A program made the position numbers and the translations under genes. The notes beneath the pieces were generated by a model, which saw only the letters and a program-made list of their open reading frames with translations, did no database searches and had not been told where the DNA came from. A DNA stretch of 64,000 nt from Paraspadella gotoi (taxonomy: Eukaryota; Animalia; Chaetognatha), in assembly GCA_051294375.1 (NCBI GenBank), contig CM119267.1, positions 7,606,683 through 7,670,682 on the forward strand. The letters are read 5' to 3'. Each line of letters opens with the position of its first letter. Position 1 is the first letter of the stretch. Shown here piece by piece: positions 197-64,000 of the stretch.

Positions 197-624
197 CTTT
201 CTATTCCGCTCGAGATGCTTCCTGATCGAGACGGCCTTTTTGATCATGTGATATAGATCTTCGGGGATTTCCGAGGCGAGACCCTTGGCCTTGAGGATGC
301 GAAGAACCTTGGTGCCAGTGACGAACTTGACCTGGGCGACGCCGTGAGAGTCGCGAAGAATGACGCCTATCTGCGACGGCGTCAACCCCTTTTTGGCCAA
401 CTTGAAGATCTGTTCCTTGACATCGTCCGAAGACAGCTTGAGCCAGTTGGGCACGGAGCGCCTAGTTGGAGATTGAAAACGGGAATGTTGTTGCGAGATT
501 TCAGTTATTAGAAGAATTTTTAACAAGTTCTTTTTCACAAAACGTACACGTATATAAACCAGAATTACCTGTAAGGCAGAGCGCTCTGCGAAATACCTTT
601 TCCGGGAGCGTGCATACGACCCAT
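197..624 (-). CDS. RPS13: 40S ribosomal protein S13 (partial; 3' exon lies left of the window)
   Basis: Exon 1 [18 protein letters not shown] (ATG 624). Exon 2 [45 protein letters not shown]...[10 protein letters not shown], followed by a GT donor at about 196. Confidence 0.97.
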
Positions 625-2050
625 TTTAAAACTTTAAAAAATATATCTAAAAAGGAAAAGGAAATACTAAGATTGGATACGCTTAATATTTAAACAATTT
701 TAATGAACCCTACGGTTAGAAATTAACATTCCAACTGTCAATGTAATATATGGATAATTTAGTTGAAACGAAAAACGTCCAAGTTTATATTCCATTACAT
801 TTGACACAACTGAAGAATAGAACGCGGTCACCTGGGAGATTACAAATAAATAACGACAATAAGTAAACAAAGTTATATCACAACTAAAGGGGCAAGGGAT
901 GGAATGCATAAATTTATGAACAGACGGGTTGTCAACGACAATTTTCTTAGTACAATTCTTAGCCGATAAAAAATAAATACGCCTCCATTGTTATGTTTTT
1001 AAGCGAAGAAATTTTATTTACTACATTCACCGAGTTAAGAAATGAATGGGATATGGAAAATTAATTAAATAATCAGCGGTTATTAAAATAAAACTTTCTT
1101 CGTCTATATAACTAAACTCAAAAACAAACTTTGTCAATAAATACGTTAAGATTTAAATTTGACTAACGAGAAAAAGCGGGACTCGTTAGATGCAATTGAG
1201 AGATGAAGAAATTCAGAGTAATGAAGTTAAAATGGACTGTTTCCGTCAAAACCACCGTCAGAATAGCAAATTGTCACTGTATTGACTCGTAAATACATAA
1301 CGAAACCACCAATCAAATAAAACTTTTAGTGACGTTAATACGCGAATAACATGTAGAAGTGCTATAAGAGTAAACTGGAAAAACGAAGGGAATGGAATAT
1401 TGTGAGTATCAGTATTGCGAAAGAGTGGAGTAAATATGAACTGGAGGGAAGAATGACTCGAATCAACATGTAGAATCCTATGGACTAATAGGAAAGGAAC
1501 TTGTTCTCCGAGTAACATTAAAATGTTAAGAAATTATTTTATCGCGAGAAACACCAGAAAACGATATTCCTTGATTATGTTTCGCTGAAAGAGATCAGTA
1601 ATCGTCTATCAAGTTGGAAGATCAAGTTCAAAAGAATTTTATAATAAACTCGAAAATATAAATGAGCAATTTGTCCATGGTCTCTTTTAATATAACACAT
1701 GATAGCTATTATCAACTAAACTTATATACTATTTCATCAGAGAGCATAAACGTTTTCCTTGTAAAAAAAAATACCATGGCACACATACCTCTAGTTTTTT
1801 GACTAAACTATCGTCATTTATTTTCAGGTTCATTACCGAACCATTTTCGATGACTGTAACAAGTGAAGCTGACATTCTCTAAATGCCAGCAACTAGTAGG
1901 AAAAATGTTAGAAAGAAACCAAATTACGGGAGTAAGCGTGAATTGTTTATGGCACGTGATTGTGAAGAACGAGAAACGTGTCGAAAATGCGACCAAGTTT
2001 GTTTTTTTTTACACTAAGATTCGATGAGTTTTTTTTTAATTCGGAATCGT

Positions 2051-5000
2051 TCATGCGCTGTGTCGGTCTCTTTCGATGAGAAGCGAGACCTGCGGACCGC
2101 AAGACTTGAGAGAAGTAACGGCTTCTTCGTGTTGGACTTGATTAAAGTTTTTGCCGTTGACTTCGACTATTTTGTCGCCTGAAAAATAACAATATTATGT
2201 TTCTAAATTACAAAGCAATAGAAGAAAATGTTTATCAGAAAAAATTACCTGGTCTAAGAATGTTGTCGGCCGGACCGCCGGGTTGAATCTTCGTTACAAA
2301 TATTCCGGGATCGTTGGGCCTGAAAGGATTTCCCAGCGAACCCACTCCGCCTAAAAAAAAGTTCATGTTAACTTAATCTTTTAATTTCTAATTAAATTTA
2401 AACGAGATTAGGGCAAACATATATATATATATAATTAAAATAAAATACATATGTATATGTATCATAATCTTACCAGCGATGGAAAACCCGAGACCAGGAT
2501 TCTTTTTGATCATAACGTTAAAGAGTTGATACTTGTTGACGTGATCGTTAACGATGGTGGGCAGAGGCCCGACGGGCGCCAACCCATCAACGGCCGCCGT
2601 GTAGCCCGGCGGAAACGGACTGGCTGACGTCGGAGGGAACGAGAGGCGTTTCTGCGTCAAGGGCGAACCGCCGCAAGGAATCATGGAAGGGAGCCCAGAA
2701 GTTGAGACTGGCGTGGAAGACCTGGAAGGGAATGTACGTAAAAGTCATCGGGTAAATATAAAGATCAGCTTTAAATCTGGCTGGACTTTTCAATGATACC
2801 ACCTCGAAGGTCGGGATCCCGGAGTAGAAGCTCCTTCACGAGGGAATCCTGGGCTATACAAAGACTGAGTGCCGAGACGAGGAATCCGGGAACCGGGAAT
2901 CTCTAAGGGATGAGGACCTGGGAAGGTTTAGCATCAGTGAGTAGGTTCATACACTCGTCTCAGGAATAAGGCCAAAAGCGCCTAACCGGGAGGAATCATT
3001 GGCGTTCCCGTCCCCGTGCCATGAGGGTCGTAGACATGGTGGGAGTGAGCGTAACCTGTTCACGAGTCAGGTCAATTGAAACTTAAACTGACATTTTTCT
3101 GTATGCACTACTCGTTTATTTACGATCATGAGATGGCAAACTGACCAGAATCGGTCGATCCTGAGATTTGAGAGGGCGGGTAAAGCGCCGCGTGGCCCCA
3201 CGCGGGGTCGGGATCGGCGAATCCCTGGAGCAGGAAGCTTGAATCGACCGTTCGCGACCCCGGGTGGATGTTAGGAGGAAGCGGCTGAGGGATCATTCGC
3301 GCGTGAGATCTGTCGAGCAGCGTCGGCGGACCTCGGCCCGGCAGCAGACCCGGCAGCCCAACCAAGGGAGGGAGAGCGCCCGGCGGAAGAGTTCCGTAAC
3401 CATGCGGCGCCGCGTAGTCGAGGGCGGGATGAGGGAGGAATGGGTGATGATGATGAGGTTTCAACGAGGCGAAAAGCGTCTTGGAACCGTCGCCGTGGGG
3501 ACCTTAAATTTAGGTTAAAACAAAAAGCTGGATAATAATTAAGAAACAAAAAATTTTTAATTCNNNNNNNNNNAGGCGGACCGATATGACAATAAATTGT
3601 TTAAGATCACCAACCTGCGAGGTGATGGGCATGGTGCTGATGCGAAAAACCGCCAAGAGTGAGATCCGGAGGCGGAAAGTGAGATCCTGGAGGTAGACCC
3701 GGTAATCCCGGCAGATGGGCGGGAAGGTGATAAGGGGGCGGCGCCAAAGAGGGCGAGACCCCAGGAATGGGTGCGTGCGGCGGAATGAGATCGGGTTGAT
3801 GATGGGGTCCCAGCGGAATCTCGATGGTGCTCATCCTCATGAGATTGGCGGTCGCCGAACCGGGGGGCGGGGGCGTATGCGAACGCGTGGGGGGCATATG
3901 CACTTGATAGCCCGATTGAATGTATGCCTGAGAGAGATGATGACCTCCGGCCCAGCCCTGATGCGGGTCGTAGCCATCGATAATTCGTGGGGCGCCGCCC
4001 GAAGGGGCGCCGCCGCCGCTACCAACGACGACGCCACCACCACCACCACCAACTTTTGAAGCTTAAAATAATATAGAAATTATGATATAAAACTTTGCTT
4101 GGTTTCTGATCTGCCATTTTAACTCGTCTCACTTTTTGGAAAGAATGACTCGACCGACGGCGAAGATTTTAGTTTCGGCGTCGGAGCCGGGGGCGGCGTT
4201 GATTTTTGTCCGCTCATTTTATTCTGTCGCGAATCAAGTTCGATTAGAATGATACTTCGATAGATAAATTTAATAAACATATTCAAACTAACAATAAGAA
4301 TCTAATTGTTTTCCCCCCACCTGTAGATGCGCCAAAAACTGCTGGCGCCAATCAGACGGCGGAGTTCGTCCCAACGTCATGCTTTTTCTGGCGGCGCCGG
4401 CATCGGGCGTCGTGTGAAAGCCAGGCGTCATTCTTTGTGCAGGTGACCTCCCCGACACGCCCGTCGCTGCGTACTCGTCGTACAGCTTGTCCGGTCCGAT
4501 GACCTTTCCACCACCAACGGGATTCCTGTACGTTTCCTCCATCGTTTTGTTGTTGTACGGACTCCACGTGTACTGACGTGGTAGCGTCCGGCTATACGCC
4601 GCTTGTCGATAACCTAGGGTAAAGTTTGTTACGTGTTTCGACGCATTGATTGCGAAGTTCAAAAATTAAGAAACGTTAACGGAGGATTCAGATAGTTCAC
4701 CTTCAAGATCGCTCGTGTATCCGTCTCCAATGAATTTACGGGTTTTGCCGTCGCGAGGAGGAATCATTTCCCAATCTGAGGTGTACCCATCCCGGATATT
4801 GGCCAACTTGGCTTGACGGCGACGCCTGTTGAAGATGAAACTACCAATTCGGAAAGAGTTTCTTGATTTTAAAAATCAAAATTCAAATTGACCTGGATGC
4901 CGCCTCGTGATTCATTTCCTGATCGCTTTTGTAGCCAGGATCGCCATCACCCCTGTAGTCGTTGATGTTCCAGGCAGAGTTGGCTCCATAATTTGGCACA

Positions 5001-8000
5001 TTGATGCTCGCTCTTTTTTGCTGGAAAGTAAGAGACAAGCATAACATTAATAAAAAAGGACCAATCTCTCGATACTTATATGTAGATTACAATACAAGAA
5101 CATTAGAAAAAAATTCCATCGATGCACGGCTATAGTTTAATAAAAAAAATATTTTAAGCATAAAAATAATAAAATTAAAACAAATGAACTACCTGCATAA
5201 AATAATTGGCGTCTGCCTGAGACCATGTCCTGTAACCGGCGGCGCGTTCATCGCAGAAGGATTTGCTCTGCGGCATGGGACCCCGGAATCCAGTTTCCCT
5301 GGTCAGAGTGCGAGACATCATGGGCTCCACGGCGTAAGGCGAGGCGCCCTTTCCAGGATCCTGAAACAAGCCGCCCGGCTGGGAAATTGGTCGAGGGCGC
5401 GCCCGATTTCCGTAAGGATCGAGGCCGGAATCGTCGCGGGACGAGCGCTTGCTCATCGTCGGGCCTGAACGACGAAGGGAATGTTATAATTAATATAATT
5501 ATAATTAATGCAAATTATTGCAAAACGCGAAACTGACGAGCGATACCATACCCGCGGAAGGAGGTCGAGGAGGAAACACAGAAGCCGACGAAAGGTGAGG
5601 GAATTGAGATTGACTAGTTGTTGGAAGGGAAGACATTCGACTAACCATGTGTCCCTGCAAAAAAAGGAAACCATCGTGATGCCATCAGTCTCTTAAGGAC
5701 TAAGAATTATTAACTACCTGAACGGTGGCTGCCCCGGAGAAGGGCAGGTTCACTCCTTGTAGAGCCGCGAAGTGAGCTTTGGAGCTCCGGACCGGCTGCG
5801 CGTCGCCGGATTGTTGCTGCGGGTGCTGCTGCTGATGATGATGAGGAGGAAAGCCGGCGCCGACCCCGGGAGCGACGAGATTAGGCTGGGATAACGCAGA
5901 TAAGAGCGAGCCGCCAGAGGACGAGGGAGACTTGACGCGCTTCAATTTGGCGTCGACATCCTTGTCGCTCGCCAGCGACTCGCGGTGCAGCTGCTGATCT
6001 CTGAACTGCTGCTGCTGCAAACCGACTTGATGCAGCAGCGACATTTCGTCGTCGCTGGAAGCGCCGCTCGGAAAACCTCCGCTGCTCCGGTGACTGCGAC
6101 TGTGGGTGGGGGTGGTTTTTAATATTCAAACTTTATAAAGTGCATAATTCTCTAGCTCATTAGTCTTACCAAGAAGCCAGTCAAGTAGCCTTCAAAACAC
6201 TAGGTAAGTCATAAGTTAATTCTCCACTGAACTTACAGGGTAGTGAATCAAAACTTAGAATAGTATTTACCATCAGATTTTATAATTATTGAATGTCTTT
6301 TTATAATACACTAAAATAATCACTTATGTTTTTTCTTTCTGATATAGGTTTTATTTTCCTCATGCTTTTACAATACGCTGCGCTACTAAAAAGAATGCAA
6401 CATTGGTTGAATTTGCTCTGCGCCAGTAAAGAGCTTAAAAACACTACTAAATATGTTAATGTTCCCTAGCAGTATGTTATGAAATTCATTTAATAAATAA
6501 GCTATATTGCCCCTGACTTTGGACAGGCTTTGGTGGTTTAAGGCCTCCATCACTCTTACAAGATAATTACATAGCAGGTCCCTGCAAGCTTTCAATCAAG
6601 ACTCTCTCACAGTCCCGTTTATTCACTCCCAGAGTACCTGGCTTCCCTATCAATGAAGTGGAAAATATTTATATTATTTATATTATCAAGAAGGCTATTA
6701 AGAAAAGAAATAACTACTAATCTAAGTCGGGAAACCATGTTTCGACTCGTGCCTTTCGAGTCTGATAAAGATTCGAAAGGCAAGAGTCGAAACATGTCCG
6801 ACTTTTATTGTTAAAAAAAATCGTCGATAATGCCAATTAAAACTTTTGTTTTCCTTGATTAAGTTACAACGTTACCTGCTGCTGACACTGTCGCGGTTTT
6901 TGTCTCGCTTATCGATCTGATTTCCGCCGCCGCCTTTCAACAACGATAGATCCGACATTCTTGCCACGAGGGAATTCGCCACCGCCGTCGGGGTATTTTT
7001 GATGCCGCCTCCACCAACGGCGGCGGAAGAGGGCGGACCTACGAATAATTTCAAAGCCATGCCAAATAATATAACTTTCAACTTTTAATAGCGGCGGCAC
7101 TCTAAAATCGTCCGTAGAACCTTCCAGGCACCCCGCTTTCCTCCGCGATTACCTCTAGACTCGACTCCGACCGCCGCGGATGTCGCCGGCGACGCCATGT
7201 ACTTGTTGAGATCGGAAGCCTTGAGGCTCAGGCCCTTGGGTTTAGGCGGAGGAGGAGGAGGGCCGCCAACGATTGTCTGACCAGAAACTAGGCCCAACGT
7301 TGGCGTCGCGCTTTGACGATTTAAGGCTAAAAAAAGAGCCATGTATTACATTACATTAACTTTAATTTCCTCGTTTTATAGTACTCTTGCGTGGTGCCCG
7401 GGAAGAAAAACTCACCTCCGTCATTATCGCCCGTGGCCGACGAGTCGACGAGCATCGTCGAGGATCCCGCGCGACGAACTTCCGAAGAAGCGGAATCCGA
7501 AAAGGACGACCCGCGTCCGGAAGTAGAGTACACTGACGGCGGGTTCTTGGGACGTGGCGGCGGAACGCTCCCGTCAACGGAGGAAGTAGTTTGACCAGAT
7601 GACGACCATGCCTTTTGGTGCAACATTCCTTCGAGGGCGGAATCTGAAAAGGACAAATAGTAAAGACAAAGACCAAATAAAAAGGATCAATAAACTGACA
7701 GATCTCACCGTTGACGGCTGAGTCCGGACGAAAGTCCCCATTGGCCGAAACGTTGGTCAACAGTTGCGGTGGGGGAACGTGATGACTGAGAGAGCGGAGC
7801 GGCGAGGCCATCGAAGAAGATCGCGTCGAAGGTGGTCGCGAGGATCCTTGGACCGAATCACGGAAAGTCTTGGGCAGATCTGTACGGAAATAGAAAGATG
7901 TATGGGTCAAGGTAAAAAATTGTACATCGAAATAAGAGTACAAAAAAATAACTAATAAATAACTGACTAATAACTCATCCGTGCACCGATATCTAATTAA

Positions 8001-11000
8001 ACCCTTGTTGACAACGCAACGATTGTTTGATGAATCGAAATAATACGTATAATAATAATAACGTCCATAGCTCATTCCTCAAAACCCGTACCGACGCCGA
8101 TGCCGTCTCGAGAAGGCGCCTCCTTAGAATCCTTCGGTGTCGACGAGGATAAAGGAAGGAGCGCGGACGCCAGCGGTGGTGGCGGCGGCGGAAGGGGAGG
8201 GGACGGGGAATGGCGTAGGAGATGGGCCGATGGTTGCGGAGGAATGGGAGGTGGATTGGGCAAAGGACTGTAGGATGAGACTCTGTTGGCACCCGTCATG
8301 GACGAAGCGAGAGGGGGATAAGCGGCGGAAGTGGCGACGGAGCCGACAGCGCCGTTTTGACGAGTCACGTCGTGGCCGGCGTCGCCAAATCCGTTTATAT
8401 CCACCAAACTGAAAGAAAAAAGCGATAACCAAAGAAATTGACTCATTTTCAATTAAGTCATGAGTTCATCTCTTGAAAACGAGACACAGAAATCCAATCT
8501 TACCCGTGCATATTTCCGGCGTCGCGATTGGAAGAAGGAAGTTCCCCCGTAGAAGGAGACCTCGGGATTTCCGCGAGACCTTCGGGCGCCGGGCGGCGTC
8601 CAGCTTGTCGTTCTGGTGGAGCCTCATCGCCATTGGATTCAAGGCCCATCCCGAGTTCACCACCTGGGATTAAAAATTCAAGGCGAGGTGATTAGTTTTA
8701 AAAATTGGTTCACCTAAAAACCAGCGAAATATTACCGCTCTTTAACCCAATACCTTTTAAACTAGCGTTGCGGTTGTGTCGAGTTGGGGCGCGCGTTTCT
8801 TTCGGGAATGGAGTAGGAACTCGATTGAAGTTTGTTGGTTCACCATCCTAACGTGAACATAATGGGGTTTAATACATAGTACATATTACAAAATCTTTAA
8901 GATAATGATTTTCAAAATTAGTTTTATTACCGTTCCCTCGGTGGCGAACTTAATCTGTTGCCTCCGAGCGCGCTCCTCTTCCCATAATGACTGGTGAAAC
9001 GACTCAGCGTCGGCGTTGCTGCCACCTTGATCATCGTTGCCATCAATGGGCGGCTCTTCCGGTTGCTAATGAAAGAAAACAAACGATGTGACTGCAATTA
9101 TTTCGTCCCAACAACAAGAAACTTACCTGAGGAAAAAGGTAGCAGGTGAGCATCCTTTGTCCAGTACCAGGTGCAACGTCCGTTTGCAACGAAATCAAGG
9201 GCTTCGTTTGATTCTCCGAGATCCACAGGGCGGCGAGTGACTGTAGAAATAAAGAGTGTAATTAATCTTTTTTTTTTATTTGCTGGCAAACTGGCGAAAA
9301 AGCCAACCTTCAACTTGGTGAAAGAAAAAGGAAGATACCGAAGGCGATTGTCGCATAGATTCAAAACCGTCAACCGCGGCAAATGACCCAGCTCTTCGGG
9401 TAGAACTTCCAACTTGTTGCTGCAAAAGATTTAACATAGAAGTTATAATACAGTTGACAATCACGTGGAATGTATACAAGTTTTACCTTCGCAATGAAAG
9501 CAAGGTCAGTTGCAAACATGAACCGAGTTCTGGTGGAACTCCAGATAGAAAATTTTCATCTATGTTCAGCGACCTAAAAAAAATCCAAGGACCAAGACAT
9601 GTACTAATCTTAACCAATAATTTTAAGTGTTTTCCAGTTCTTGGTAATTCACCTCAGATGTCGCAGCAGCCCGATTGAAGGCGGAATCTCTTCCAAGTCG
9701 TTGGCCGAGAGGGTGAGTTCTTGAAGAGACAACATTCCTCCCATAGAAAACGGTAGTGAAACCAACTGGTTGTCATCGACTAGGAAAAAAATAAAAAATT
9801 TCTAAACTAGTTTGGACAGATTTATTCATTAAGAAACGCGAGTAAAATTTTGGTGAAAAAAAACCATTCGAACCTTTGAGTATTTTTAACAGATTGAGTC
9901 TTCCAATAGAATCCGGCAACTCTTGCAACAGATTCGTGGAAAGATAAAGGTGAGTTAGAGCGTTACAGCCGGCAATCTCAGGAGGAACCCATTGAATTCG
10001 ATTCTAGGAGGAAAAGATTGTACTTTAATTGGTTTTAATATCAGTACTATCAGTAGTCATCAGTAGTCTGTAATTCATAGCTATGTACATATACGCCGTA
10101 TTATATCGTAATTTTCCTGCGTGCACACATGACTAACCTTGGAAGCATCGAGAAAAGTGATATTTCTCAGTTTCCCAATTTCTGCCGGGAGAGCGGAAAT
10201 TTGATTGATGTCGCACCATAACTCCAAGAGGGAGCCCAATGTTCCAACAACTGCTCAAAAGAACATGCCAAGTTTAGCACCCATGTAAAATTTAGATAAG
10301 TGAATAAAGAACCCACCCTCGGGAATCTCAGTAAAGTCATTGTTTCCGATGTCCAATCTCTCCAACTCGACGAGACGCGACATCGATTTCGGCAAAGTCT
10401 TCAAGTGGTTTTCTCGAAGTTCTGAGGAGAGGAGATTTAATTGAATTTAAATCGCTCCGTTGTGGCAGAATATTCACACCGCCTCACGTCCACCATCGTT
10501 CAGCCAAATCCATTGGCTCAGAGGGGGAACACACCATCCCAGGCGTTGTGTTCCATCCACAGTCCTAACGACTTCCTTCTGTGTTGGCAAAGCGAGACCG
10601 TCCTAGGGTAACCGGGCCAGTGAGTGAAAGAGTCACTGAGGGTCGGAAGCCCCCAAAGCCAACAGTGAGATGCCCCATCCCAATGGGCATCACAGGCAAC
10701 CCGGCTGTTGCCATAAGGGTGAGCCCTACTATCGAACACGCAACCTTCTCAGGGTACGCTACGACAAACGCCTATGCCCTGCCGACTTCGGGTACGGTAC
10801 GACAAACGCCTATGCCCCCACAACTCGTGCTCTCTCTCCCACTATGTTAACAGTCTTGTCAGAAATCTCTCAGGCTTGAGGAACCTGAGTGATGACTATC
10901 CTCACAGGGGATCCTGTGGTGGTATATTCACACCGCCTCACATCCACCATCGTTCAGCCAAATCCATTGGCTCAGAGGGGGAACACACCATCCCAGGCGT

Positions 11001-12212
11001 TATGTTCCATCCACAGTCCTAACAACTTCCCTCTGCATTGGCAAAGCGAGACCGTTCTAGGGTAACCGCGCCAGTGACTGGAGGCATCACTGAGTGTCGA
11101 AAGCCCCCAAAGGCAACAGTGAGATGCCCCATCCCAAAGGGCATCACAGGCAACCCGGCTGTTGCCATTCCGTCTCATTTCGACAATCGCGATGATTCTC
11201 ACCCAATATTTTGAGCTTAGATAGACGGCCAAAGTTGGCGGGAAGGTATTCTAAGAAGGTATCGTTGAGATAGAGTTGAGTAAGGTTGAGTAGTTGCGTA
11301 AATCCGTCGGGTAACTTCCCCAACGGATTTACGGAGGCTTCCACGACGGACAAAGATTTGCAGCCTTTGATGGCGTCTGAATTTCGGAATGAGTGGAACG
11401 ATCAAGGATTAGGACGTTTGAAAATGTGTACAAATTTTCACTAACAGCAACGAAAATATTTTCAGAAAAACTATCCTCACCTGGAATGTCGAGAATGCCA
11501 TTTTTGGAGCAATCCAGCTCGATGAGGCCGACGAGAGATGCCAAGGCGGGAGGAATGCTCGTAAGTTCGTTGTCAGAGAGGCCGAGTTTTTTAAGGCTGT
11601 GACATACAAAGAGCGACCTGACAAGCAGAGGGGTAGAATACAGAATGAGAATAAGTTACCCTTACATGGAGATTTTAAATCAAACGCACGAACCGCAACC
11701 AAATTCGAAAAGATGTAGTGAGAAAAATGGGATAGAACACATTCGCATAAAAATTGAAAAAAAAAGGCGGGGAGGTTACAGATTACCTTTGAAGCTACTG
11801 ACAAAAAAAAATTTTTTTAGGGGAATGTAAAATTACTTTTACAATCGCATAATATTTATTTTAAAAGATTATTTTCATATACTAATTTATGCGCAACAAA
11901 CCTCGGTAATTCTCTAATTTGGTTTGAATCCAAATAGAGTTCCTCCAATGTCCTTTCATGATGAAAAACGGCGTCAGGAACAAAGTCCAAACTGTCAAAG
12001 AAAACCGATCGTTAAAAAAAGGACTTTCGTCCTAATATATAATTTCATAAGGCCGACAAGGTTCGTCTATACTACCTGCAATGCCGGAAGTCAAGAATGA
12101 AAACCTCGTCGTCGTCGGCGTTATTTCCCGTGCAGGTGCAGCGGTTAAGCAACTTATTCATCGCCACCTGCGCTCCGCCTGTTGACGGAATGACCGATGA
12201 CAAGTAATCCAT
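2051..12212 (-). CDS. LAP family protein (N-terminal LRRs, C-terminal PDZ; Erbin/Densin/Lap1-like), multi-exon
   Basis: LRR exons ([41 protein letters not shown]; [34 protein letters not shown]), a long low-complexity middle, and a terminal PDZ ([12 protein letters not shown]...[28 protein letters not shown]...HEEAVTSLK). The start could instead be the later in-frame [11 protein letters not shown] gap lies at 3564-3573. Confidence 0.9.
6724..6804. repeat. Intronic near-perfect palindrome containing a degenerate minimal hammerhead-like core (Penelope-type remnant)
   Basis: catgtttcgactc-gtgcctttcgagtc / tgataaa / gattcgaaaggca-agagtcgaaacatg. The right half reads CTGATAA-A, stem gattc/gagtc, GAAA-CATG-TC. 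Confidence 0.6.
10461..11169 (+). mobile_element. Non-autonomous miniature LTR retrotransposon (TRIM) with tRNA-like sequence in its LTRs, inside a LAP intron
   Basis: Two 255-bp direct repeats (10461-10715 and 10915-11169; about 21 mismatches by hand count) with TGTGG...TGCCAT(A/T) termini. The 199-bp internal region has no coding capacity. CCGT is duplicated on both flanks. Confidence 0.85.
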
Positions 12213-13074: not shown

Positions 13075-15472
<2,398 letters not shown>

Positions 15473-16449: not shown

Positions 16450-21840
<5,391 letters not shown>

Positions 21841-36842: not shown

Positions 36843-37719
36843 TTACATTTCGCTTCTCTGCTCCTTCAGCTTCTGTCGTTTCAACTTCTTCGTCGACTGC
36901 TTCTTTTTCTTCGGCTCTTCGTCGCCGGATCCCTTAACAACGACGTCGTCCTTCTCCGTCATGATCACCTGAAGGGAAATGGGCGCTTTAACATTAGATA
37001 CTTTTAGCTTGATTGCTTTCAACAACAAAATAAATATTTTTGGGTTTTAATAAAGTTTATTAAAATTATTCTTTGGAAAGAAAACCAAATTATATTACTA
37101 AAAGTAAGCAATCGGTATTCCATATCGATATTACCTCGATATGACACGGCGAAGACATGTAGGCGTTGATTCTACCGTGAGCTCTGTACGTACGACGCCT
37201 CATTTGAGCCGCGCGATTGACTTGAATGTGAGTGATCACCTGAAATTAATTTTATACTGTTAGCAGCAATGAAAACAAGTGAAAAAGGGTGCTTATTTAT
37301 GTGCCATACCATGTGATCGACGTCAAGTCCCTTATAATCGGCGTTGGATTCGGCGTTTTTGAGGAGCGAGAGCAAAAACTCGGCAGACTTCTTGGGCCAC
37401 CGCCCCTGGCTTCCAGAAGCGTTCCAGGATTTGGCCTGGGCGTGGCGTCCGGGACCTCCGACGTAACGGCGGAAGGGAACAATTTCCTTTTTTTCGATGA
37501 CGTTCTTGAGAAAGCGGGTCGCTCTGAAACGCGTGAAATAAGATTTAATTCGAAATTAATATTGAAATTAGACGAGTGAAGGAATAGAAACCTTCTCAAT
37601 GGCATCCCGCGGATGGCTCCGGCGGTTTCGCGCGTATTCTTGTAATGAACGCGAAGATTGGCGCCCCTCGCCTTGACCGACTTAGACGGGTTTTCCGGCT
37701 CGCTCGCGTAACGCGTCAT
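36843..37719 (-). CDS. RPL17: 60S ribosomal protein L17 (uL22)
   Basis: [73 protein letters not shown]-terminal [15 protein letters not shown]. Confidence 0.97.
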
Positions 37720-48972: not shown

Positions 48973-50439
48973 TCAATCCACATGCGCGACTTTGCCTTGA
49001 AGAGGATTCGGTGACACGTTGAAGATTCTTCGCCGCTCGGAAAACGGGGGCGAGGATGAGGCGCCCGAAGAAGCGGCCCGCGAGTTGCGGGAGTAAAAAT
49101 GCGATTCTGAGTAGACGGGCGGAAAGGAGGCGCCGTCCATCCGTAGACGGCGTTCTACGGCGCGGTCGAAAAATCTTTAAGGAAATAAAACAAAGTGTGA
49201 TCGCGAAAATAGCCGGCCAATTCAATCGTTGTTTATAAACCTTGATATCTTGACGGCGTTTCCAGACCCTGGAGAGAAGGCGGAAAGGCTGGTCGTGTCG
49301 ACGAAGATTTCCTCAGCCTGGAGTTCTTCCTGAAGAGAGTCGCAGCCTCGAACACGGCGACGAGGAAGGGCTGAGTCTTCCGACTTAAATGTAACGAAGG
49401 GAAAAGTTCGAGTTAATGTCCAATTCTAAATTACACGTCAGTGCTAAAGTCGATCGTGCTTTCCGTAACACACGTCACGTTAAGAGGAATCTTGAATCAT
49501 TTACCGACGTCTTTTGTTCGACAATTAAAACTAAGGACCAGCCAGTCCCCAAAGACCCCCCCCTTCTTATATCTACATATTCACAAAAACTACAAAAAAA
49601 TACAGTTATTTATATAATGTCATTATCTTAATTTATTAAGAATATATGTAAAACATTGAAGTACAATTATAAAAAGCTGCCCTCTATTGTTAAAAATTCT
49701 ATTCACGATCATTTGTTTCAAATTTTTCTTGAAATGGGCCCGCTATTTTTGGAGGATGTAAAACTAAAAGATATGAAAGTTATTTTACGGTTTACTCTTT
49801 TGCTTAGTTAGAAATAGTCATAGAACTTCATATTTATAAATGTAAACGAATGTTGCCAATTGCAAAAGCAAGCATCTCACCTTGGCCATAAAGAGATCAA
49901 CTTTAGTTCCGACTATGATGAATGGTAATTGAACCGCAGTTTTCGCTGTAGAATAAAGCGTGCTCCTATGCTGCTGCTCTTCCGCTACCGCAAGCTCCTC
50001 CACCCACTTGCTCAAGTTTTGGGCAGATTTTTTATTGGATAAATCGTGACAGAGAATCGCGCCGTGGATCCCGGCGTTGTAAAACACGCTTCTGCGCAAG
50101 AATTTTATCTTTTTTTACTGACATTTTTGATCAAACCAAGTTTTTATGATAAAACGACTAACAAATTACGTTATGTGGCTTATCAATTTAAGTCTTAACC
50201 TAAAAAAAAAAAAATCACCTCGTATTGGCGTGTGACTTATTCCCCCCTACGTCCCAGAGTTCCACGTAAAAGGTCCGTTCGGCCGGCGTTCCCTGTTTGA
50301 ACTCGTGGATCTTGACGTCGACGGCGGCGCCGATCGTCCATGCGGCGTTGACGAGCGGCGTCTCGTGGACGAGAAGGTGGACCAACGATGACTTACCGAC
50401 GCCGCTGTCGCCAACGACGACGACTCGAACTCTGTCCAT
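48973..50439 (-). CDS. RABL3: Rab-like protein 3
   Basis: [80 protein letters not shown], ends KVAHVD*. Confidence 0.93.
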
Positions 50440-50642: not shown

Positions 50643-51596
50643 TCATTTGGGAAAGAACGGCGCATGACCCAAAGACTTGGGATCAAATTTTGAGAAATCG
50701 TAAAAACCAAGACAGTCGTAGTTTTTGTCGAAGACGAGCTCGAAGGAACCGCCATTGGAAGAGGATGCGGAAACATCCGCCTTGACAAAAGAGAGGACTT
50801 CGTCGTCATCCGTGAGGACGTGGCAAATGTCGTTGTTGAGTCCATCGGACGCCGAGCGAGAGAATGCGGGAAGCGTCGAATTATATTCTTTGGCTTCCTG
50901 TTCGGTGACGAGACGTTCCGCGCGGTCACTTATAATCAGAGCCCACTGCATATAGGCAGTCGTCAGGACATCCCCGAGAGTACTCCAAACCAATTTGCAT
51001 CGCGGAATATTCAGCTTGATCAATTGGAACAGTTTGTATCCAGACATCCTTCGAAGTTCGGCAACCTGCATTACTTGAAACATCTCCTCCACCAACCTGC
51101 TCATCAACGTATCGTTGAGTTCAGTCGGTGAAATTTTAGCCGCCGTCTCCAAATTTTGGAGCCGGGCTGTTTCGCCGATGGACTGGCCCACCGGTTGCGA
51201 GGATTCCGCCCGAACTGTCGCCTCCCGCTCCCGCGACTTAGCCGTCCACTCATCTTTTAGCCAACGGGGTAATTGACGCCAGGCTCGGCTGAGGGTCGCA
51301 AAGTCCGTTGGGAAGGAAGGGTGCAGAATCTTGAGGCAACTGACCCAGAGATCGTAGGAAGTAACGGGGCCTTTGGTCATTAAAAGTTTAGGGTCGACGG
51401 TCGAGGGAGACATATCGACTCTGATCCGCTTCCCCGCGGGTTCGTCGACGGAAACTTCCACTTTCAGTGGACGTTTGGTAGCGGAAGAAGTCGTCGGGAC
51501 TTCAGTAGACTTGCTAGAGCCCGATTGGTCCACATCGTCCGACGCGTCAGCGTCTATCTTCACCGATGCCAAGGCGATAATATCAGAGTTGCTCAT
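50643..51596 (-). CDS. Uncharacterised single-exon protein with divergent HMG-box-like segment(s)
   Basis: About 317-aa ORF with exon-like composition. KGPVTSYDLWV...LSRAWRQLPRWLKDEWTAKS and RRMSGYKLF...VWSTLGDVLTTAY resemble the HMG helix 1/helix 3 patterns. Confidence 0.65.
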   Translation of the reverse strand: MSNSDIIALASVKIDADASDDVDQSGSSKSTEVPTTSSATKRPLKVEVSVDEPAGKRIRVDMSPSTVDPKLLMTKGPVTSYDLWVSCLKILHPSFPTDFATLSRAWRQLPRWLKDEWTAKSREREATVRAESSQPVGQSIGETARLQNLETAAKISPTELNDTLMSRLVEEMFQVMQVAELRRMSGYKLFQLIKLNIPRCKLVWSTLGDVLTTAYMQWALIISDRAERLVTEQEAKEYNSTLPAFSRSASDGLNNDICHVLTDDDEVLSFVKADVSASSSNGGSFELVFDKNYDCLGFYDFSKFDPKSLGHAPFFPK

Positions 51597-51770: not shown

Positions 51771-52181
51771 TCACAACCATTGAGAAAACGCGTAGACCAG
51801 GAAAAATACGAAAACGCCGAAGCCGACGACGTAACACATTAGGTTTTTGTGTCCTCGTTGAGTCATGCTCGTTAGTCTGGACACGGTGGACTGCAAGAGG
51901 CCTCCGGAAGAATCGAAATCGTCGTCGACGTTGCCGAGCAAGAGATTCTGCGAGTCCGTCTCGCGACCAATGTCGAGGGACAGGGATTTCAGCATGCGAA
52001 CCTAACAACGAGACGAAGAACAAGAATTAACCTTCGCGCATCGAAAGGAAAGGAAGAAAGTGATTACTTTGGAGGTGAGTCCCTCGGCCAACTTGTCGTT
52101 CTCTTGTTCCATCATCTGGTGCATGGCGTGACTGGCGTGTCCTTCGTTATTCAGGTGACGGTACGAATAAGGGCTCGACAT
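51771..52181 (-). CDS. BET1: BET1 Qc-SNARE
   Basis: MMEQENDKLAEGLTSKV|RMLKSLSLDIGRET...LLQSTVSRL followed by a C-terminal TM. Confidence 0.9.
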
Positions 52182-52505
52182 TCTGTTTACAAAGTTTTTT
52201 TCTGTCATTAAATCTGACAAAGTCACGTAATTAAAAACCGTGATTTTTTTTTTACTTTTTCTTAAAATTGTACATAGACAGAAGACACCATAAACCGAAA
52301 AAAACTTTTTTGGCTACTTAAGAAAATTTCTCAAATCATACGTATATAAAAAAGTTCCTGTGGGGCAGAGGGAACGTCATCCAGACAATAAACCATCAGC
52401 CAGAAAAAAAATTTAAGCATGAAAAAAGTCACCCAAAAGTATGATAAATAAAAAAAACGAACAAACTATGGCGAGCCAAAAAACTCAATGATTTAAAATA
52501 AAATA

Positions 52506-53196: not shown

Positions 53197-56364
<3,168 letters not shown>

Positions 56365-56472: not shown

Positions 56473-57794
56473 TTAGAATATTGTTCCACGAGTGATTAGA
56501 GTCTTCTTGCACAGATACAGTTCATCAATCTCTTTTATAGTCTCATTAATCAATTTCTCGACTGAGGGGATTGCGTTGCAGACACCCTTCCGAACGCAGA
56601 CGCAACCTACTTCATCATTATACAACACACTCTTGGTCGGAGAGAAAGTTTCGTTCGGTCCCAAAACTACTACGACGACGACATAGCGGCGAGGTAACCG
56701 TCCGCGCCCAATGTTTTTGAGACATTCAGTGTCGCACCAGCACAACTGCGACGAGCGAAACAAGTGTGGTCGAGTAAAATCAACAATGCAATCATCATAC
56801 TCGACATCGTCTTCATCGCGAACGCGCAAAAACTCGATCCGATAACGATGACGCGGCACCGACGGACGATATCGATTAGTCAACAGATCGTCCAGATTCT
56901 TTGCAACGTGCTCCTTTTGGTCGGCAGTAAGAAATAGGCCCTTAATTTCTCGATTTTCCGCAACACCCATGTAGACTTTTCCACAACCTTTAAAAAGAAT
57001 CTTAAACTAAAAACGAACGGCAAAATAGACGCGCCACGAATCGATAAACCGGGCAAACCTTGTTTTGAATTCAAAAACGCGTTGATGTCCATTGAGACGG
57101 GAAAACGGAGTTTGGGCGCGAAAATCATGGAATCTTCTCGGTCAATTTCTGACATCGGCAGAGTCGGGTATTCGTCATAAGCCAAAGTCCGATGCGACTT
57201 GATCGCCACAAACTGACCCTCGCTCCACGGGCAAGGCGTGTCTTTCAAAAGACCATTCGATTCCTTTGAGAGCTCAAGGCTCGATGCATCGGGGAAATCG
57301 TTGACGGCCGAATCGAGTGCCAGTGCTGCCTCACTTTTAGGCGACTTGAAGACGTGAACAGGATCCTGCGCGTCGCGAATATCTTTAGGAAGAATGTATT
57401 CTGGAGAACTCTGAGATGGAAAAGGAAACGGTGAGAGCTGTTCCAGAACAGATTCTAAGCGTCCGGCCCTCAACGAATATTTGGGTCTTTCTTCGATATG
57501 ACGTCTCGAACTCTTCCTTCTTTGCCCACGACAATATTCATTCCTCACATATTTTTTATCAGATGGTTTGCTAAGGTTTTTTCCCCTGGGCAAGTCTAAA
57601 ACAGTCGGAGTTCCCGATTTAGCCGCTTGTCGAGCTACACAGCGCGGTAGAAAAGTTAATACTGGTTTCTTTCTCGGGAAAAGATAGTGTTGTGGTACGG
57701 TATCAGTCTTTTCGTAAATGCCCCCAGGACAATACCGAGCGTCAATGCTGGCAAAATGGGCCCCGTCCGCGAAAGAGCGGGGCATCACGTCCAT
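56473..57794 (-). CDS. Schlafen AlbA_2-domain protein (SLFNL1-like), 2 exons
   Basis: EGQFVAIKS...DINAFLNSKQG|GKVYMGVAENREIKGL...YRIEFLRV...RYVVVVVV...LYNDEVGCVCVRKG matches the AlbA_2 pattern (AFLN-x-x-GG-x-hhhGV-x-D/E). Confidence 0.75.
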
Positions 57795-58153: not shown

Positions 58154-59890
58154 TTAACAGGGATTCGCTGGAAGCAGCTTGCCGACGCAAGTGCCGAACC
58201 CGACGCGGTAGCCGTCTCCCTCGCAAAAACCAGATAAGACCACCTCGTCGCCGTCGACCAGAAATTTGCGTTTGACGTCGTCCGCCAACGCGACTTCCCG
58301 ACTCCCCTTCCAGGATAGCTCCAGCATGGATCCGAGGGAATCGGCCGTCGGACCGGAGATGGTTCCAGAGCCCATGAGGTCGCCGGGTTTTATATTACAA
58401 CCAGTAGCGGTGTGGTGAACGAGTTGTTGTTTCATCGTCCAGTACATGTACTTGAAGTTGGAGCGGCAAACTGCGATTTGGCAACAAGAAGAACATTTCA
58501 ATATTTAATAGTATTTCTGATCTATTATCCTTTCATTAAAGATTGTTTAAAAGGGATCACTGACCCGTGGCGGCCTCTTTCTTGCCATCAGGCTTGATGG
58601 CAACCTCGAGATTGATATCGAAGTTGTAGTCGTCTTCGTGCTTCAGGTACGGCAACAGTTCTACGTCCTGGAGCATGTTCGACGTTATGAATGGCGCCAG
58701 CGCCTCCATAGTGACCACCCAAGGGGATATAGTGGTTCCGAGGTTCTTGCCGCAGAAGGGACCCAACGGTACGTATTCCCACTTTTGAATATCGCGCGCG
58801 CTCCAGTCGTTCATCAGCACCATGCCGAAGATGTGATCGGCGGCCTTTTTCATTGAAATAGGCTCGCCCAAATTGGTGCCTGGTCCAGTAAAAAACGCCA
58901 TTTCTAGTTCAAAGTCCATGAGTCTGGGAGAAACAAGAAAACGATTAAATTTAAACCCTGAAGCCGGAAAACAATTTCATACATGACTAATAGGAATAAA
59001 ATAAGGAACAATACAAGTTTTATGAAATTTAAACATAAGATGTTACGGTTGTACCAGTGTACCAATGTACCTGCAGGGTCCAAATTTAGGCGGGACGTCG
59101 TCCGAAGGCCTGGTCTGTCCGTTTGGTCGCCTGATAGGCGTTCCACTAACGACGACTGAAGAGGACCGTCCGTGGTATCCGACGGGAAGGTGCTTCCAGT
59201 TTGGCATCAATGCATTGTCCTTGCCTCGAAACATGATGCCGACGTTTGTGGCGTGGTGGATAGAAGAGTAAAAATCAGTGTAATCGCCTGAAAAATTTCA
59301 GAAATCGTTTTTTTTTCAAATATCAAACTGTTATTTCGAAATGGATAATTTATATATTGGTTGTACCAATTTCATATATATAATATATAATATTAAATAC
59401 GTAAAGAGGAAAGACGAGAATAAGATGAAAACGGAAAAAAATATAACCTATAGTGGCCGGAAGATGCATGGTACACGTAAGCCGAGGCACGACTGCCTTT
59501 GATTTAAGATCCCCGTTGTCACGAAGGGTCGGCGTGTCAGCGGCCAAAAGTAGCTGCAACGTCTCCCGAGCTTCGCGCCAAGCGTCTTTGCCCAGACCCA
59601 TGAACTCGTTGAGAGTTTCTCTCTCAAAAACGTGGCGCTTATTCGAAAGAATCGGACCTGAATAAAAATAAAAGTAACAAAAAATATTAAAAGTTCAATT
59701 TCACAATTTTAGACACCGAAATAAATCTTGACCTACCTTGAAAAAGGTGAGAGATCTTCGAAAGATCCAGTACAGAGTCACCGATGGCGACACCGATTCG
59801 ACGGCGAGGTTCATCAGGAGTCGAAAAAACTCCGTACGGCAAATTCTGGACGGGAAAGTCCGAATCAGGCGCCACGGGAACCCAAGACAT
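58154..59890 (-). CDS. FAH: Fumarylacetoacetase
   Basis: [80 protein letters not shown]. Confidence 0.98.
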
Positions 59891-60128
59891 TTCGACGTAA
59901 TAAGAGGAAACGACTATAAAAAAAGGTGAATAGTGTAACAAAAAGTTTTAAAATGTTTGTTTACCCAACAAATATAATAAAAGTCTATGAAATAATTACA
60001 AAAATACAGTATATGACCCAGCAACAAGTAACGGATTTTAATTCATCGGAATATAACTAAAAATTGCAATCACCTTAAATCACACAAATTTTGACTAGAC
60101 AATAGAGTACTGATGTGTCTACTGTCTA

Positions 60129-61002
60129 CAGTGCGGCGCAAAAAAAAAGTAGCCACTTCTATCACAGCGAAAAAACTATATTGAATGGATAAATTTTACA
60201 AATATATAAAAATATAAAACAAAGCTTATTGAAAGATAAAGTGATTGGTCCAACTCCAAGTCCCATTAAAATCGATCAAAGCGTCCGAAAGTCAAAAACG
60301 ATTAGTACAAAACATCTGACGAGAATAAATTTATTTTAATAAAAAAAAATATATAACTTTTTATCTTAATATATTTATAATATAAAATTAACTGAGCAAA
60401 TTCAACATCAAATATCTGTAAAGATAAGTATCAACCATTTTTAACCTAAATCAAATTAAAATAAATAAGAAAATTTTATAGAAAAACGATCTTTAAAAAA
60501 AAAACAAAAAAAAAAAAACAAGTTGAGTAATAAATTACCCTAAGTTACTTTTAAAACTTTTTCATATCTAAGTTTTTTCCTTATGGCATCTTTTGTTAAA
60601 ACAAACTAATATAAACTCACAATTATATTAAAAATATTTTTTTTATTTTTATCATAAATTACTTTTTGATTTTAAAATAATTTTTTAAAAATTAATTATT
60701 TTCAATATTTATTATTAAAATGCTAAAACTATTTTTATAGAAAAGTAATACAAATTTATTACCAACCCTTTTATATGCTTAATTCTATTATGATTTTATT
60801 AATTTTATATTATAAATCAGTCAGAAAAAAAAGCGTCATCAATAATAACTTTTAGAAGTCTTGCTATATTCTTTTGCCTGAACATTCAAATTTTGTTTAC
60901 ACCAATCGAAAAGAGCTATACTTTTTATATATTTTCTTAAAATTAAAAAATAAATAATGATGTATTTAAAGCTACCTAGTGACTACTTTTTGCGCCGCAG
61001 TG
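60129..61002. mobile_element. Tc1/mariner-type non-autonomous element (MITE), about 874 bp
   Basis: TA|CAGTGCGGCGCAAAAAAAAAGTAGCCACT ... AGTGACTACTTTTTGCGCCGCAGTG|TA: terminal inverted repeats with TA target duplication and an AT-rich non-coding interior. Confidence 0.85.
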
Positions 61003-61420
61003 TACATACGATGAATCAATACATCTCTATTTGTTTTCAGATACAGGAAAAAAGTATATAGAAAATTTAAGTTCAATGAATCGATACTAGGTCACTTAAA
61101 CTTTAAAGGAACAACTGCCAATAATATATTTCCAGCAAATTTCCTTTTTCTCTCGATATGAGTCTGATTGAATCATTCAAGATTAGTCAAAATTTACTAA
61201 CTATTGATACTTTTTTCTGACAGCCTATACTTTTTCAACAGCCGTAAAATAATGTAAAGGTTAAGCGTAATTTGCACCATAAAAGATGAATTGTATTTCC
61301 ACCAGAGTAAAATAATTAATTGGAAAGAGCATAGGATTAAGCTGTTGGACGAAGACGCCTATAGCGAAATCATTTTCGACTAGTTTGAGATTTTTTTTTT
61401 TTTTTTGCATAGCGTCATTC

Positions 61421-62167
61421 TTAAAAATGACTCCAAGCGGTCGGAACCGCCGTCGTTAGCGAGGAAGATTTCGTCTTCGTCTTAGCGCAAGACACATATT
61501 GATACGACTCTAGCACTGCCGTGCTGTTGCTGTCTTGGCTGGAGGTGATACAGGTGGCTTGAAATCGCATAAGAGACGTGTGCACCCAAGCCCGAGCGTC
61601 CTGACAGTAGTTGACCATGAAGGAAAGGTCTTCCTTGTAGGTCAAGGGTATTGTCTGACGAATAATAAAGGGACTCCTCATCGGGACAACGACGTGAGTG
61701 GCGTTTTTTATGTCCGCCAAAAGAGAACCGAGACTGACTTGGACGCTGAAGCTAACCAAAGTGATTGAGTAATAGTTAGGGTTGTAGAGTCGCCACCGGT
61801 TCTCGAAGACGAAGTCAACCCGCTCCTTGGAGGCGTTGATGTTCACGCGAAAGGGCTCGATGGTACGAGGTACGGTGGGATCGAGCCCGAGTTCCGGCGA
61901 ACGAGGGTAGATGAAGAAGGTGACGAGGAAGGTGAGGACGAACACGGCGACAATGGTCACCATAACGTGCAGGGTAGTCCGTTTGGGTTTAAGACGTTCG
62001 TCGGAGAAGGGGACAAGGGAAATCAATTGTTCTTTTTCCCGGTTGACGTGGCCTCTGCCGCGACACGTGGGGCAGTCGACGTAGACCGTTTCTTCGTTTT
62101 CCTCGGGATACCGATCGAACTCGTGGTAGCTCCCGAGGCCCTCTAACTGATAGAGGCTGCTCCCCAT
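61421..62167 (-). CDS. TMEM106B: TMEM106 family type II membrane protein, single exon
   Basis: DCPTCRGRGHV...QLISLVPFSDERLKPKRTTLHV, TM, FFIYPRS, NPNYYSI, YQYVSC. Confidence 0.9.
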   Translation of the reverse strand: MGSSLYQLEGLGSYHEFDRYPEENEETVYVDCPTCRGRGHVNREKEQLISLVPFSDERLKPKRTTLHVMVTIVAVFVLTFLVTFFIYPRSPELGLDPTVPRTIEPFRVNINASKERVDFVFENRWRLYNPNYYSITLVSFSVQVSLGSLLADIKNATHVVVPMRSPFIIRQTIPLTYKEDLSFMVNYCQDARAWVHTSLMRFQATCITSSQDSNSTAVLESYQYVSCAKTKTKSSSLTTAVPTAWSHF

Positions 62168-62550
62168 CTTCGAAAACAAGAAATTGAAAAAAGATAAAAT
62201 TTGCGAGTTATAATATAGAATTTTTTTATTTTTTTTAACAAAGAATAGAAAAAATATTTCATAAATTGTAAGGGCACTTTTCTAAATAACGTTGAGTAAG
62301 GCAATAAGTAAGGCATTGTTCAATAAGGAATGACAATTACTAATGAGTAACGTGAAAAAAAAGTTGAATTGAGTATAGCGTAATAAACAGTTGGGTCAGT
62401 GTCGCATTGTCCATCTCCATTTTCATTGCTATGATATGTACATTGTACAATTGGCAAATGTTCTGTAGGTATAACTTATATGTGTAAAGTTCAGTTTATA
62501 CAGAAAGCATATTCAAAGTGCTCCGACTCGTTTGCGTTTTTGGCGATATT

Positions 62551-64000
62551 TCAGTTCTTCTTGTTTCCTTTTTTCAAACTCCTAACCCGAGTCTTGCTAG
62601 AAACATCGGAGTCGGAAAAGTCGACGTCCGATTCGCGCGATAGGACGATGATGTCGTCGTCGCTCGAAGCGACCAAGTTGTCGTCGTCTTGGTGTCCATT
62701 GATCGGTTTGACATTTCGTTTGCGAAAGGATTTGGACGAGACGCTTTCCTCGTCGACGTTGTAATTTTCGTTGGCGTCGGGAACCAATTCTCCGTCGCTG
62801 TCAAGAGAAGCCATCCCGGTCTTCTTTTCTCCATTTTTGATCCGATTTCTCCCCTCCGCCGACGACTTGGACCTTCCAGGCGACTTGGCTCGGGTTCGAC
62901 TCGGTTTAGTCTTTTCTCTCTTCTCGCGTGGAGGGTGAGGGACGAGGAATTCTCCCTCGGGCAGAGGGGAAGATCTAGGCACGGATCTTGCGGCCACCGA
63001 CTTGGGAAGCGTCTCCCCGGCCGAATCAATTTCTGCTGCGGCGCGATTCTTAGTCGATCCTCTCTCGCCTCGGTCGAGCTCGTCCTCCGACTCCCACAGC
63101 CGACGTTTCCCGTCCGTCCGCGGGACGGAACTCTTCTCTGGTCTTGAGTCGACGCTGGCCGAGCGATGAGAGGTCGGGCTGTCGTCGTTCCGCCCTCGAG
63201 AAAGCTGGAACCCGCCGTCGCCTCGGAGTCTTTCGTCGCCGGCCGAGTCAAGTCGCTCGTTTTCGCCGAAAGCGTTCACGGCGGGCGGCGGGGATTCAAT
63301 TGCGGCAGTGGCGGACTGACGTAAATGATCGAACATTGCTGGCCCCTTGAGAGCGGCGACGAAGGCCAGGGATGTAATGTAAGTTAGGGTCTGAGCACCG
63401 AGTGATAGGACGAATTTGTAGCCCTGAAAATAATTGGGAATAGTAGTTTGCGTTTTTATTACCGAATGAATTTATATCAGGTTTAAATTGTAATTTAGAA
63501 TGTATTTTTTTCCGATATTATGAATTCGAGATTTTACCAGAAAATTTATAAATGTACTTATGTAGCCAATGCTGATCGCTTAATATAAGTACCTGTTGCT
63601 TAGCTTTTGAAATAATGTCATCTATTTCGTTTTCTTTCTCCGTCAGCATCGGATGAACGAATCGGCGATACAAAATTGACGAGCCTTTTTGACATGATTT
63701 AATTACATAAATGCCAAGCATACACAGTCCAAGTTACAGATGAAACTTACCCTTCGTGTATGGCGACAACAGCCAGATGAGAAAGATGATCTTGACTTCG
63801 TGATAAAAAGGCATCCACCAAGAGACGAGGATATCGGCAAAAGTCTCGGCGAAAAGAAAGAGCGCGAACACGATCCAGTACATCATCCATTTCACGTAGT
63901 CCTTGACGCTCTTTGTCTTGACAGCTTTGTAGCTTTGGTAGGCGGGAAAAAGCGTCCCGAAAAAAAGGATCACGAGGCGGGAGATCAATGAGGAGATCAT
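62551..64000 (-). CDS. REEP: Receptor expression-enhancing protein (REEP1-4 subfamily)
   Basis: [68 protein letters not shown], long disordered C-terminal exon. Confidence 0.94.

Follow-up and report, generated by a model that had tools for sequence, protein, structure and literature searches.

Why would 25 of 26 neighbouring genes, members of unrelated families, be read from one strand? This question is raised by the 64,000-nucleotide (nt) stretch of animal DNA considered here (the window), which an initial annotation had described as a 64-kb array of candidate operons, transcribed either as very long polycistrons or as clusters of adjacent co-oriented operons. We argue that the closely spaced genes probably fall into some five neighbouring operons, each with two to five mostly housekeeping genes and resolved by spliced leader (SL) trans-splicing, with several single genes beside them. 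The second option thus fits, whereas one kinetoplastid-like polycistron of 64 kb is broken by a divergent gene pair. Because SL trans-splicing and operons have been published for chaetognaths (PMC2481426, PMC12460157), the phylum to which this animal very likely belongs, the novelty is much smaller than had been assumed: as operons, these genes are a further example of a published system, and the new question is one of order above the operon.

Orientation, spacing and candidate units

The full minus strand was read, its open reading frames were listed, and 42 exon translations were scanned against Pfam. The window holds 26 genes, about one per 2.5 kb, with 25 on the minus strand and one on the plus strand (two-sided binomial p = 8e-7); this recount agrees with the near uniformity of strand, improbable at random, that had been claimed for the array. 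A Pfam match at E <= 0.01 was found for 21 of the 25 minus-strand genes, a few of these matches falling under the curated cut-off. The families are indeed functionally unrelated, as had been noted, and tandem duplication is therefore no explanation for the strand bias.

The sole plus-strand gene, a MORN-repeat gene, lies tail to tail with FOPNL (about 250 nt between their ends) and head to head with orf33. Because it sits between its two neighbours, the array consists of two runs, of 16 genes (REEP to FOPNL) and of 9 genes (orf33 to RPS13), and the divergent pair at 33069/33210 interrupts what had been taken for a single array.

The stop-to-ATG spacers at the 23 same-strand joints are distributed bimodally in the window. 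Fifteen are short (103, 103, 108, 154, 156, 174, 191, 198, 201, 203, 269, 359, 383, 432 and 444 nt) and eight are long (913, 977, 988, 1176, 1393, 1426, 1530 and 2523 nt). The nine that had been measured before (all those up to 203 nt except the 156-nt one) were each exact on remeasurement. Ten of the 23 are at most 203 nt and so come under the operon definition of genes less than 250 bp apart given in the main text of PMC12460157; the five further short ones, of 269-444 nt, include the untranslated regions (UTRs). A codon scan of the gaps located the last two RABL3 exons, which cut the gap behind that gene to 444 nt, and found no additional supportable gene in the gaps.

The eight long gaps part the genes into groups of five at most. 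From these groups we infer the candidate units REEP-TMEM106, FAH-Schlafen-like-USP15, BET1-'HMG'-RABL3-FBXO3-DNAJC3, RPS3A-MGMT-RPL17-orf36-FOPNL and orf33-MFSD11-NRBF2-SCARB-AMT; TatD, MAP4K, PI4K2, LAP and RPS13 probably each form a unit of one gene. RNA polymerase II would begin at the first gene of a tight group and transcribe through its two to five genes, cleavage and polyadenylation of the upstream mRNA would take place on the acceptor of the next gene or a few bases away, and a 33-36-nt leader would be trans-spliced at that acceptor, capping the downstream mRNA. At the left, the large signalling genes, which have GC-rich blocks upstream, would probably be separate units. Judged from the anatomy of the locus and from the published system, this is the most likely mechanism.

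RNA contigs, leaders and the lineage of the animal

How far does RNA bear out these units? Contigs of one sequencing run (X1) were aligned to positions 24001-44000, and the alignments proved to be spliced. The pieces listed match the window base for base, and the 15 cis-splice joints listed, beyond which there are 26 more, all fall on the predicted strand. A single contig spans four of the nine same-strand joints in this region, namely MFSD11-NRBF2, NRBF2-SCARB, orf36-FOPNL and MGMT-RPL17. The first two are spanned by one 4309-nt contig with five MFSD11 introns removed, and the MGMT-RPL17 contig begins inside an unspliced MGMT intron.

At three further joints a contig ends just ahead of the next gene. 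One ends at 26179, on the A of a TTTACAG acceptor and 28 nt before the AMT ATG (the acceptor itself is 26 nt before it); the orf33 contig ends at 31465, which is 70 nt before the MFSD11 ATG, 29 nt past the start of an AATAAA and 1 nt past a CAG; and the RPL17 contig ends at about 36663, some 22 nt before the orf36 ATG, a position computed on the assumption that the last contig piece aligns fully. The distances of these ends from a HAG (H being A, C or T) are 1, 1 and 4 nt, with a joint chance, calculated post hoc, of about 0.006. For the remaining two of the nine joints there is no contig among those listed. Contig depth is low in the TatD-RPS3A gap, an observation to which we give no weight. 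Predicted acceptors would place the first exon base at, for example, 26177 (AMT), 31465 (MFSD11), 36658 or 36651 (orf36), 37738 (RPL17), 39291 (MGMT) and 646 (RPS13).

Evidence on the leader comes from relatives of the window animal. For USP15, identity to the best named matches (chiton, Lingula, amphioxus) is 52-53%, and to three unnamed proteins 64-70%; for RPL17 exon 2 it is 90-94% with environmental proteins and no more than 77% with named ones. In two trees the window RPL17 falls, with support of 100/100, in a long-stemmed clade of environmental proteins, which makes up 11 of 39 rows hand-picked from the matches in one tree and 8 of 21 rows in the other. One such relative, P0131 (90% identical over a 71-residue query), starts MG-KLKFFYLLN, in which KLKFFYLLN is the exact nine-residue translation of chaetognath SL1, and another, P0409, starts MG-EAKNIYFTCLK, close to the translation of SL3; both leaders are tabulated in Table 3 of PMC2481426. 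Among 65 N-terminal extensions of at least six residues, P0131 has a leader score of 47 and P0409 one of 27, compared with 20 or less for the other 63. We take the MG that begins such extensions in marine metatranscriptome proteins to be library adapter, followed by the mRNA's 5' end; six further entries of the clade carry only MG ahead of the start and are uninformative on leaders. The N-terminal extensions of other animals mostly read as terminal oligopyrimidine (TOP) starts. Two RPL17 proteins from another plankton group, P0164 and P0222, share the extension NSISDRQTFHG before differing TOP-like parts; it may be a further leader or result from a start farther upstream.

Since the RPL17 clade includes proteins that start with translated chaetognath leaders, the window animal is very likely a chaetognath. 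The size of its RPL17 (190 residues, 21,745 Da, isoelectric point 10.44) agrees with that given for Spadella L17 (190 residues, 21,642 Da, 10.45) in the available part of PMC2020476, which is weak support. Affinity with Xenoturbella, gastrotrichs (which the GC content of 43% would fit; PMC11660948), catenulids or nematodes was considered and dropped; the leader evidence points away from gastrotrichs. No named chaetognath protein stood among the homologue matches of the window proteins, an exact look-up of three of those proteins found none, and a metagenome scan with a relative's RPL17 gave no close relative among the best 80 of 136 loci. The three published leaders have no copy in the window at up to six edits.

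In the main text of PMC12460157, about half of the genes are trans-spliced, 18% are in operons and the longest operon has nine genes. The window resembles the operons described for Spadella cephaloptera (PMC2481426) and Paraspadella gotoi (PMC12460157), as far as the accessible parts of these papers go, in its head-to-tail order of housekeeping genes and genes for ribosomal proteins, with less than 250 bp between neighbours, and in matching leaders, here on the RPL17 orthologues of relatives. It also resembles the Spadella RPS14-PCNA operon, for which the available text of PMC2481426 puts the poly(A) site 3 nt from the acceptor: here too the upstream 3' end appears to lie almost on the downstream acceptor, at 1-4 nt if contig ends are taken as a guide. 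Operon-specific leaders are lacking in chaetognaths according to the portions of both papers available to us. The window differs from the published operons in that several candidate operons follow one another on a single strand across 64 kb, although one bacterial artificial chromosome of the 2008 study is said in that text to have held several other clustered genes of the same orientation (PMC2481426). The words 'strand' and 'orientation' have no occurrence in the main text of PMC12460157, and judged from that text and from literature search listings, same-strand domains above the operon level are apparently not in print for chaetognaths. Six gene names of the window are absent from three supplements of that paper, the operon table not being among the three; the block may already be listed in that table.

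Other known systems are more distant. The operons of Ciona intestinalis and Oikopleura dioica are likewise SL-resolved, with intercistronic DNA of median 1 bp in Ciona and about 31-33 bp in Oikopleura according to the available part of PMC7986045. They belong to another phylum with another leader, and those of Ciona are mostly dicistronic, reaching six to seven genes. Nematode SL2-type operons share the co-oriented, closely spaced housekeeping genes, but have a dedicated SL2 and a poly(A)-to-acceptor spacing of about 100 nt, compared with 1-4 nt at the three measurable contig ends here, which are weak evidence of such a spacing. Kinetoplastid polycistronic units are likewise long one-strand runs bounded by strand switches. 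In kinetoplastids every mRNA is trans-spliced, and the runs comprise tens to hundreds of mostly intronless genes, whereas most window genes have cis-introns and the runs are of 16 and 9 genes, with kilobase gaps.

Possible long polycistrons or separate promoters, and the case against operons

Could each run instead be one very long polycistron, of 16 genes from REEP to FOPNL and of up to nine from orf33, its gaps stretched by long UTRs and by miniature inverted-repeat transposable elements (MITEs)? When units are cut between 444 and 913 nt, 10 of the resulting 11 share a strand, which favours such polycistrons at p = 0.012, a value that makes no correction for the choice of a biased window or for the post hoc split. 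In a switch model built on counts from P. gotoi, possibly another species than the one considered here (5,061 genes in 2,151 candidate operons, among 21,072 genes; PMC12460157), with a same-strand probability of about 0.57 from the published operon fraction, two or fewer switches in 25 joints have p = 1.5e-4; yet by this model about 0.12 windows of the kind are expected in a genome of 21,000 genes, even before local clustering of operons is allowed for. Given such clustering and the selection of the window, the shared polarity is unremarkable, although a real excess is conceivable. An 878-bp MITE-like element fills more than half of the 1530-nt TMEM106-FAH gap, three gaps within the 16-gene run are largely AT-rich, and an RNA contig from TatD exon 1 reaches upstream past 44000, more than 500 nt beyond the gene. 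Because the MITE-like element and inverted repeats inflate some of the long gaps, a 16-gene unit stays viable. Set against it are the blocks of GC-rich DNA upstream of RPS3A, MAP4K and LAP, which may be promoters or 5' exons; moreover, in the main text of PMC12460157 no chaetognath operon is longer than nine genes, and operons are poor in signalling genes. On balance we consider long polycistrons unlikely, and we would put no higher the broader proposal that chaetognath housekeeping genes lie in strand-polarised domains, with REEP-FOPNL as one 16-gene, 30-kb polycistron whose joints MITEs have stretched. If true, that unit would be nearly twice as long as the longest published chaetognath operon, a kinetoplastid-like arrangement missed by distance-based operon calling. 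If same-strand runs of at least 16 genes were common genome-wide, the 250-bp rule would make arrow-worm operons look shorter than they are, and polycistronic transcription on the scale of domains would have an animal model in this phylum.

Perhaps no polycistron need be invoked at all. Each gene might have a compact promoter of its own, often inside the 3' end of the gene upstream, with some trans-splicing possible, and co-orientation would have arisen by chance or would favour low transcriptional interference. Such an arrangement has a parallel in a compact annelid genome described, in the available part of PMC7854359, as lacking operons, and several observations that favour it weigh at the same time against short SL-resolved operons. 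We trained an acceptor model on the 15 introns confirmed by RNA. It scores 2 or more upstream of 6 of 24 ATGs; the controls that reach this score are 6 of 24 for the opposite strand, 18 of 123 windows placed in gaps and 11.6% of shuffles. Because the controls score nearly alike, the enrichment is weak, and an impression of a strong acceptor before nearly every ATG was dropped after these controls. TOP-like starts are seen at RPS13 and possibly at RPL17: a TCT-like CCTTTTC lies 36 nt before the RPS13 ATG, and at a matching distance the TOP-like MG-LFL opens P0272, a clade-like RPS13 that may be a chimeric assembly. The pyrimidine run 22-37 nt before the RPS13 ATG is the best-scoring acceptor and is equally readable as a TOP start, and was withdrawn as proof of a TOP promoter. 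The motif CGTCATT, which we take to be a possible promoter element resembling a cAMP response element (CRE) or an unfolded protein response (UPR) element, occurs four times (46592-46776) in the 269-nt FBXO3-DNAJC3 spacer and once more at the MORN start (33217), the window holding 16 minus-strand copies. It is possibly either a CRE/UPR-like element or a member of the operon-linked motif class mentioned in the main text of PMC12460157. Finally, two starts fit within the 140 nt between the MORN gene and orf33, which probably share a bidirectional promoter; since this pair, in effect an internal promoter control, packs two starts into so little DNA, short spacers alone do not exclude promoters.

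The RNA evidence for operons has its own weak points. A two-gene contig is not the same as one transcript, as overlapping UTRs or DNA could chain contigs; such chaining is seen in the FOPNL contig, which runs on into the antisense MORN mRNA. Cleavage sites and acceptors are alike in composition, and contigs do not prove RNA ends. The leaders were seen as peptide translations on the RPL17 orthologues of relatives, not on RNA of this species, where none was found among the loose ends listed (12 of 115) or the pieces listed (16 of 545). Considering the weak acceptor enrichment, the RPS13 TCT/TOP start, the CGTCATT cluster and the two starts in 140 nt, some internal genes may have promoters of their own. 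For promoters at every gene the balance is different: operons are known from this lineage, chance would hardly give 25 of 26, the upstream RNA at two joints stops 22-28 nt short of the following ATG, and RPL17 orthologues bear leaders. This explanation thus also strikes us as improbable, if perhaps by a hair less so than the long polycistrons. An artefact of assembly or annotation could be suspected from two short N gaps inside genes, but RNA contigs identical across four joints, and the placing of all 15 listed intron joints on the predicted strand, make it very improbable indeed. Several short SL-resolved operons standing side by side thus remain the reading that we prefer.

Genes and other features of the window

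The features are collected in Table 1. Gene names finer than the Pfam family (BET1, RABL3, MFSD11, LAP, FBXO3 and so on) are labels that we presume to be right.

Table 1. Genes and other features in the order of the two runs, with window positions; gaps are measured from the stop of the gene upstream to the ATG
Feature	Position	Strand	Context	Evidence
REEP/TB2-DP1	62551..64000	-	ATG at window edge; candidate unit 1	PF03134
TMEM106	61421..62167	-	one exon; 383 nt past REEP stop	PF21002/PF07092
MITE-like element, 878 bp	60127..61004		AT-rich; TA-flanked terminal inverted repeats	termini read; class putative
FAH	58154..59890	-	head of candidate unit 2	PF01557
Schlafen/AlbA_2-like (orf57)	56473..57794	-	spacer 359 nt	PF04326 in relatives
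USP15/USP4-like	53197..56364	-	spacer 108 nt	Pfam; homologue search
BET1-like SNARE	51771..52208	-	head of candidate unit 3	weak Sec20 match under cut-off
'HMG-like' open frame	50643..51596	-	spacer 174 nt	open reading frame
RABL3-like small GTPase	48973..50439	-	spacer 203 nt	Roc/Ras match
FBXO3-like (F-box + ApaG)	46810..48528	-	spacer 444 nt	Pfam
DNAJC3 (TPR + DnaJ)	44824..46540	-	spacer 269 nt	Pfam
TatD DNase	42021..43647	-	flanking gaps 1176 and 1393 nt	Pfam
RPS3A	39459..40627	-	head of candidate unit RPS3A-MGMT-RPL17-orf36-FOPNL	Pfam; four introns spliced in RNA
MGMT	37874..39260	-	spacer 198 nt	PF01035
RPL17	36843..37719	-	spacer 154 nt	RNA contig bridges spacer; candidate acceptor 19 nt before ATG
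orf36	34751..36641	-	expressed orphan	no Pfam match; covered by RNA contigs
FOPNL/CEP20	34134..34647	-	spacer 103 nt	Pfam; RNA contig bridges spacer
MORN-repeat gene, 128 codons	33210..33881	+	ATG 33210	PF02493; three GT-AG introns seen in RNA
Divergent interval, 140 nt	33070..33209		ATG to ATG	putative bidirectional promoter
orf33	31587..33069	-	expressed orphan; head of candidate unit orf33-MFSD11-NRBF2-SCARB-AMT	no Pfam match; covered by RNA contigs
MFSD11/UNC-93-like	29075..31395	-	spacer 191 nt	PF05978; five introns spliced in RNA
NRBF2-like	27890..28642	-	one exon; spacer 432 nt	NRBF2_MIT under cut-off; RNA contig bridges spacer
SCARB/CD36	26255..27733	-	one exon; spacer 156 nt	Pfam; RNA contig bridges spacer
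AMT (glycine cleavage T)	24181..26151	-	spacer 103 nt	Pfam
MAP4K (kinase + CNH)	16450..21657	-	2523-nt gap with GC-rich block; likely own unit	Pfam
PI4K type II	13075..15472	-	977-nt gap	Pfam
LAP-family LRR/PDZ gene	2051..12161	-	913-nt gap with GC-rich block	LRR match
RPS13, first two exons (remainder beyond window)	197..624	-	1426-nt gap	Pfam

The Schlafen-like gene lacks a Pfam match of its own, but SLFN_AlbA_2 is present in six of the eight relatives tested. The frame of 324 codons that the initial annotation labelled 'HMG-like' has no Pfam match and is known here from the open frame alone. A search of the ESM Atlas returned CD36 clusters only. The FOPNL intron (34450-34366) is of the GC-AG type, and joining its exons yields an open FOP-domain frame. 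The first USP15 exon is about 2.3 kb (53965-56364 region), and SCARB, TMEM106 and NRBF2, intron-rich in many animals, each have a single exon here, which may reflect intron loss or retrocopies captured into operons.

Rfam gave five matches in the window, all far under gathering, and ARAGORN none, so that no RNA gene was called. The element at 60127-61004 is presumably Tc1/mariner-MITE-like, and nested inverted repeats at 23335-23845, in the AMT-MAP4K gap, are probably another MITE. The GC-rich non-coding blocks at 40770-41160, 22360-22600 and 12300-12560, upstream of RPS3A, MAP4K and LAP, respectively, are likely 5' exons or promoters; the second contains a plus-strand ATG frame of 70 codons at 22396, conceivably a further gene although it has no Pfam match. 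LAP introns hold a near-perfect 28-bp hairpin at 6736-6796 (-45 kcal/mol, z = -9.9; Rfam match far under gathering), a possible microRNA precursor or MITE remnant, and a GC-rich direct repeat of 254 nt, its copies (10461-10714 and 10915-11168) 92% identical. Lastly, the MGMT intron at 38540-38912 carries tandem arrays of 22-nt and 19-nt units, which we read as dispersed satellite because of their very high contig depth.

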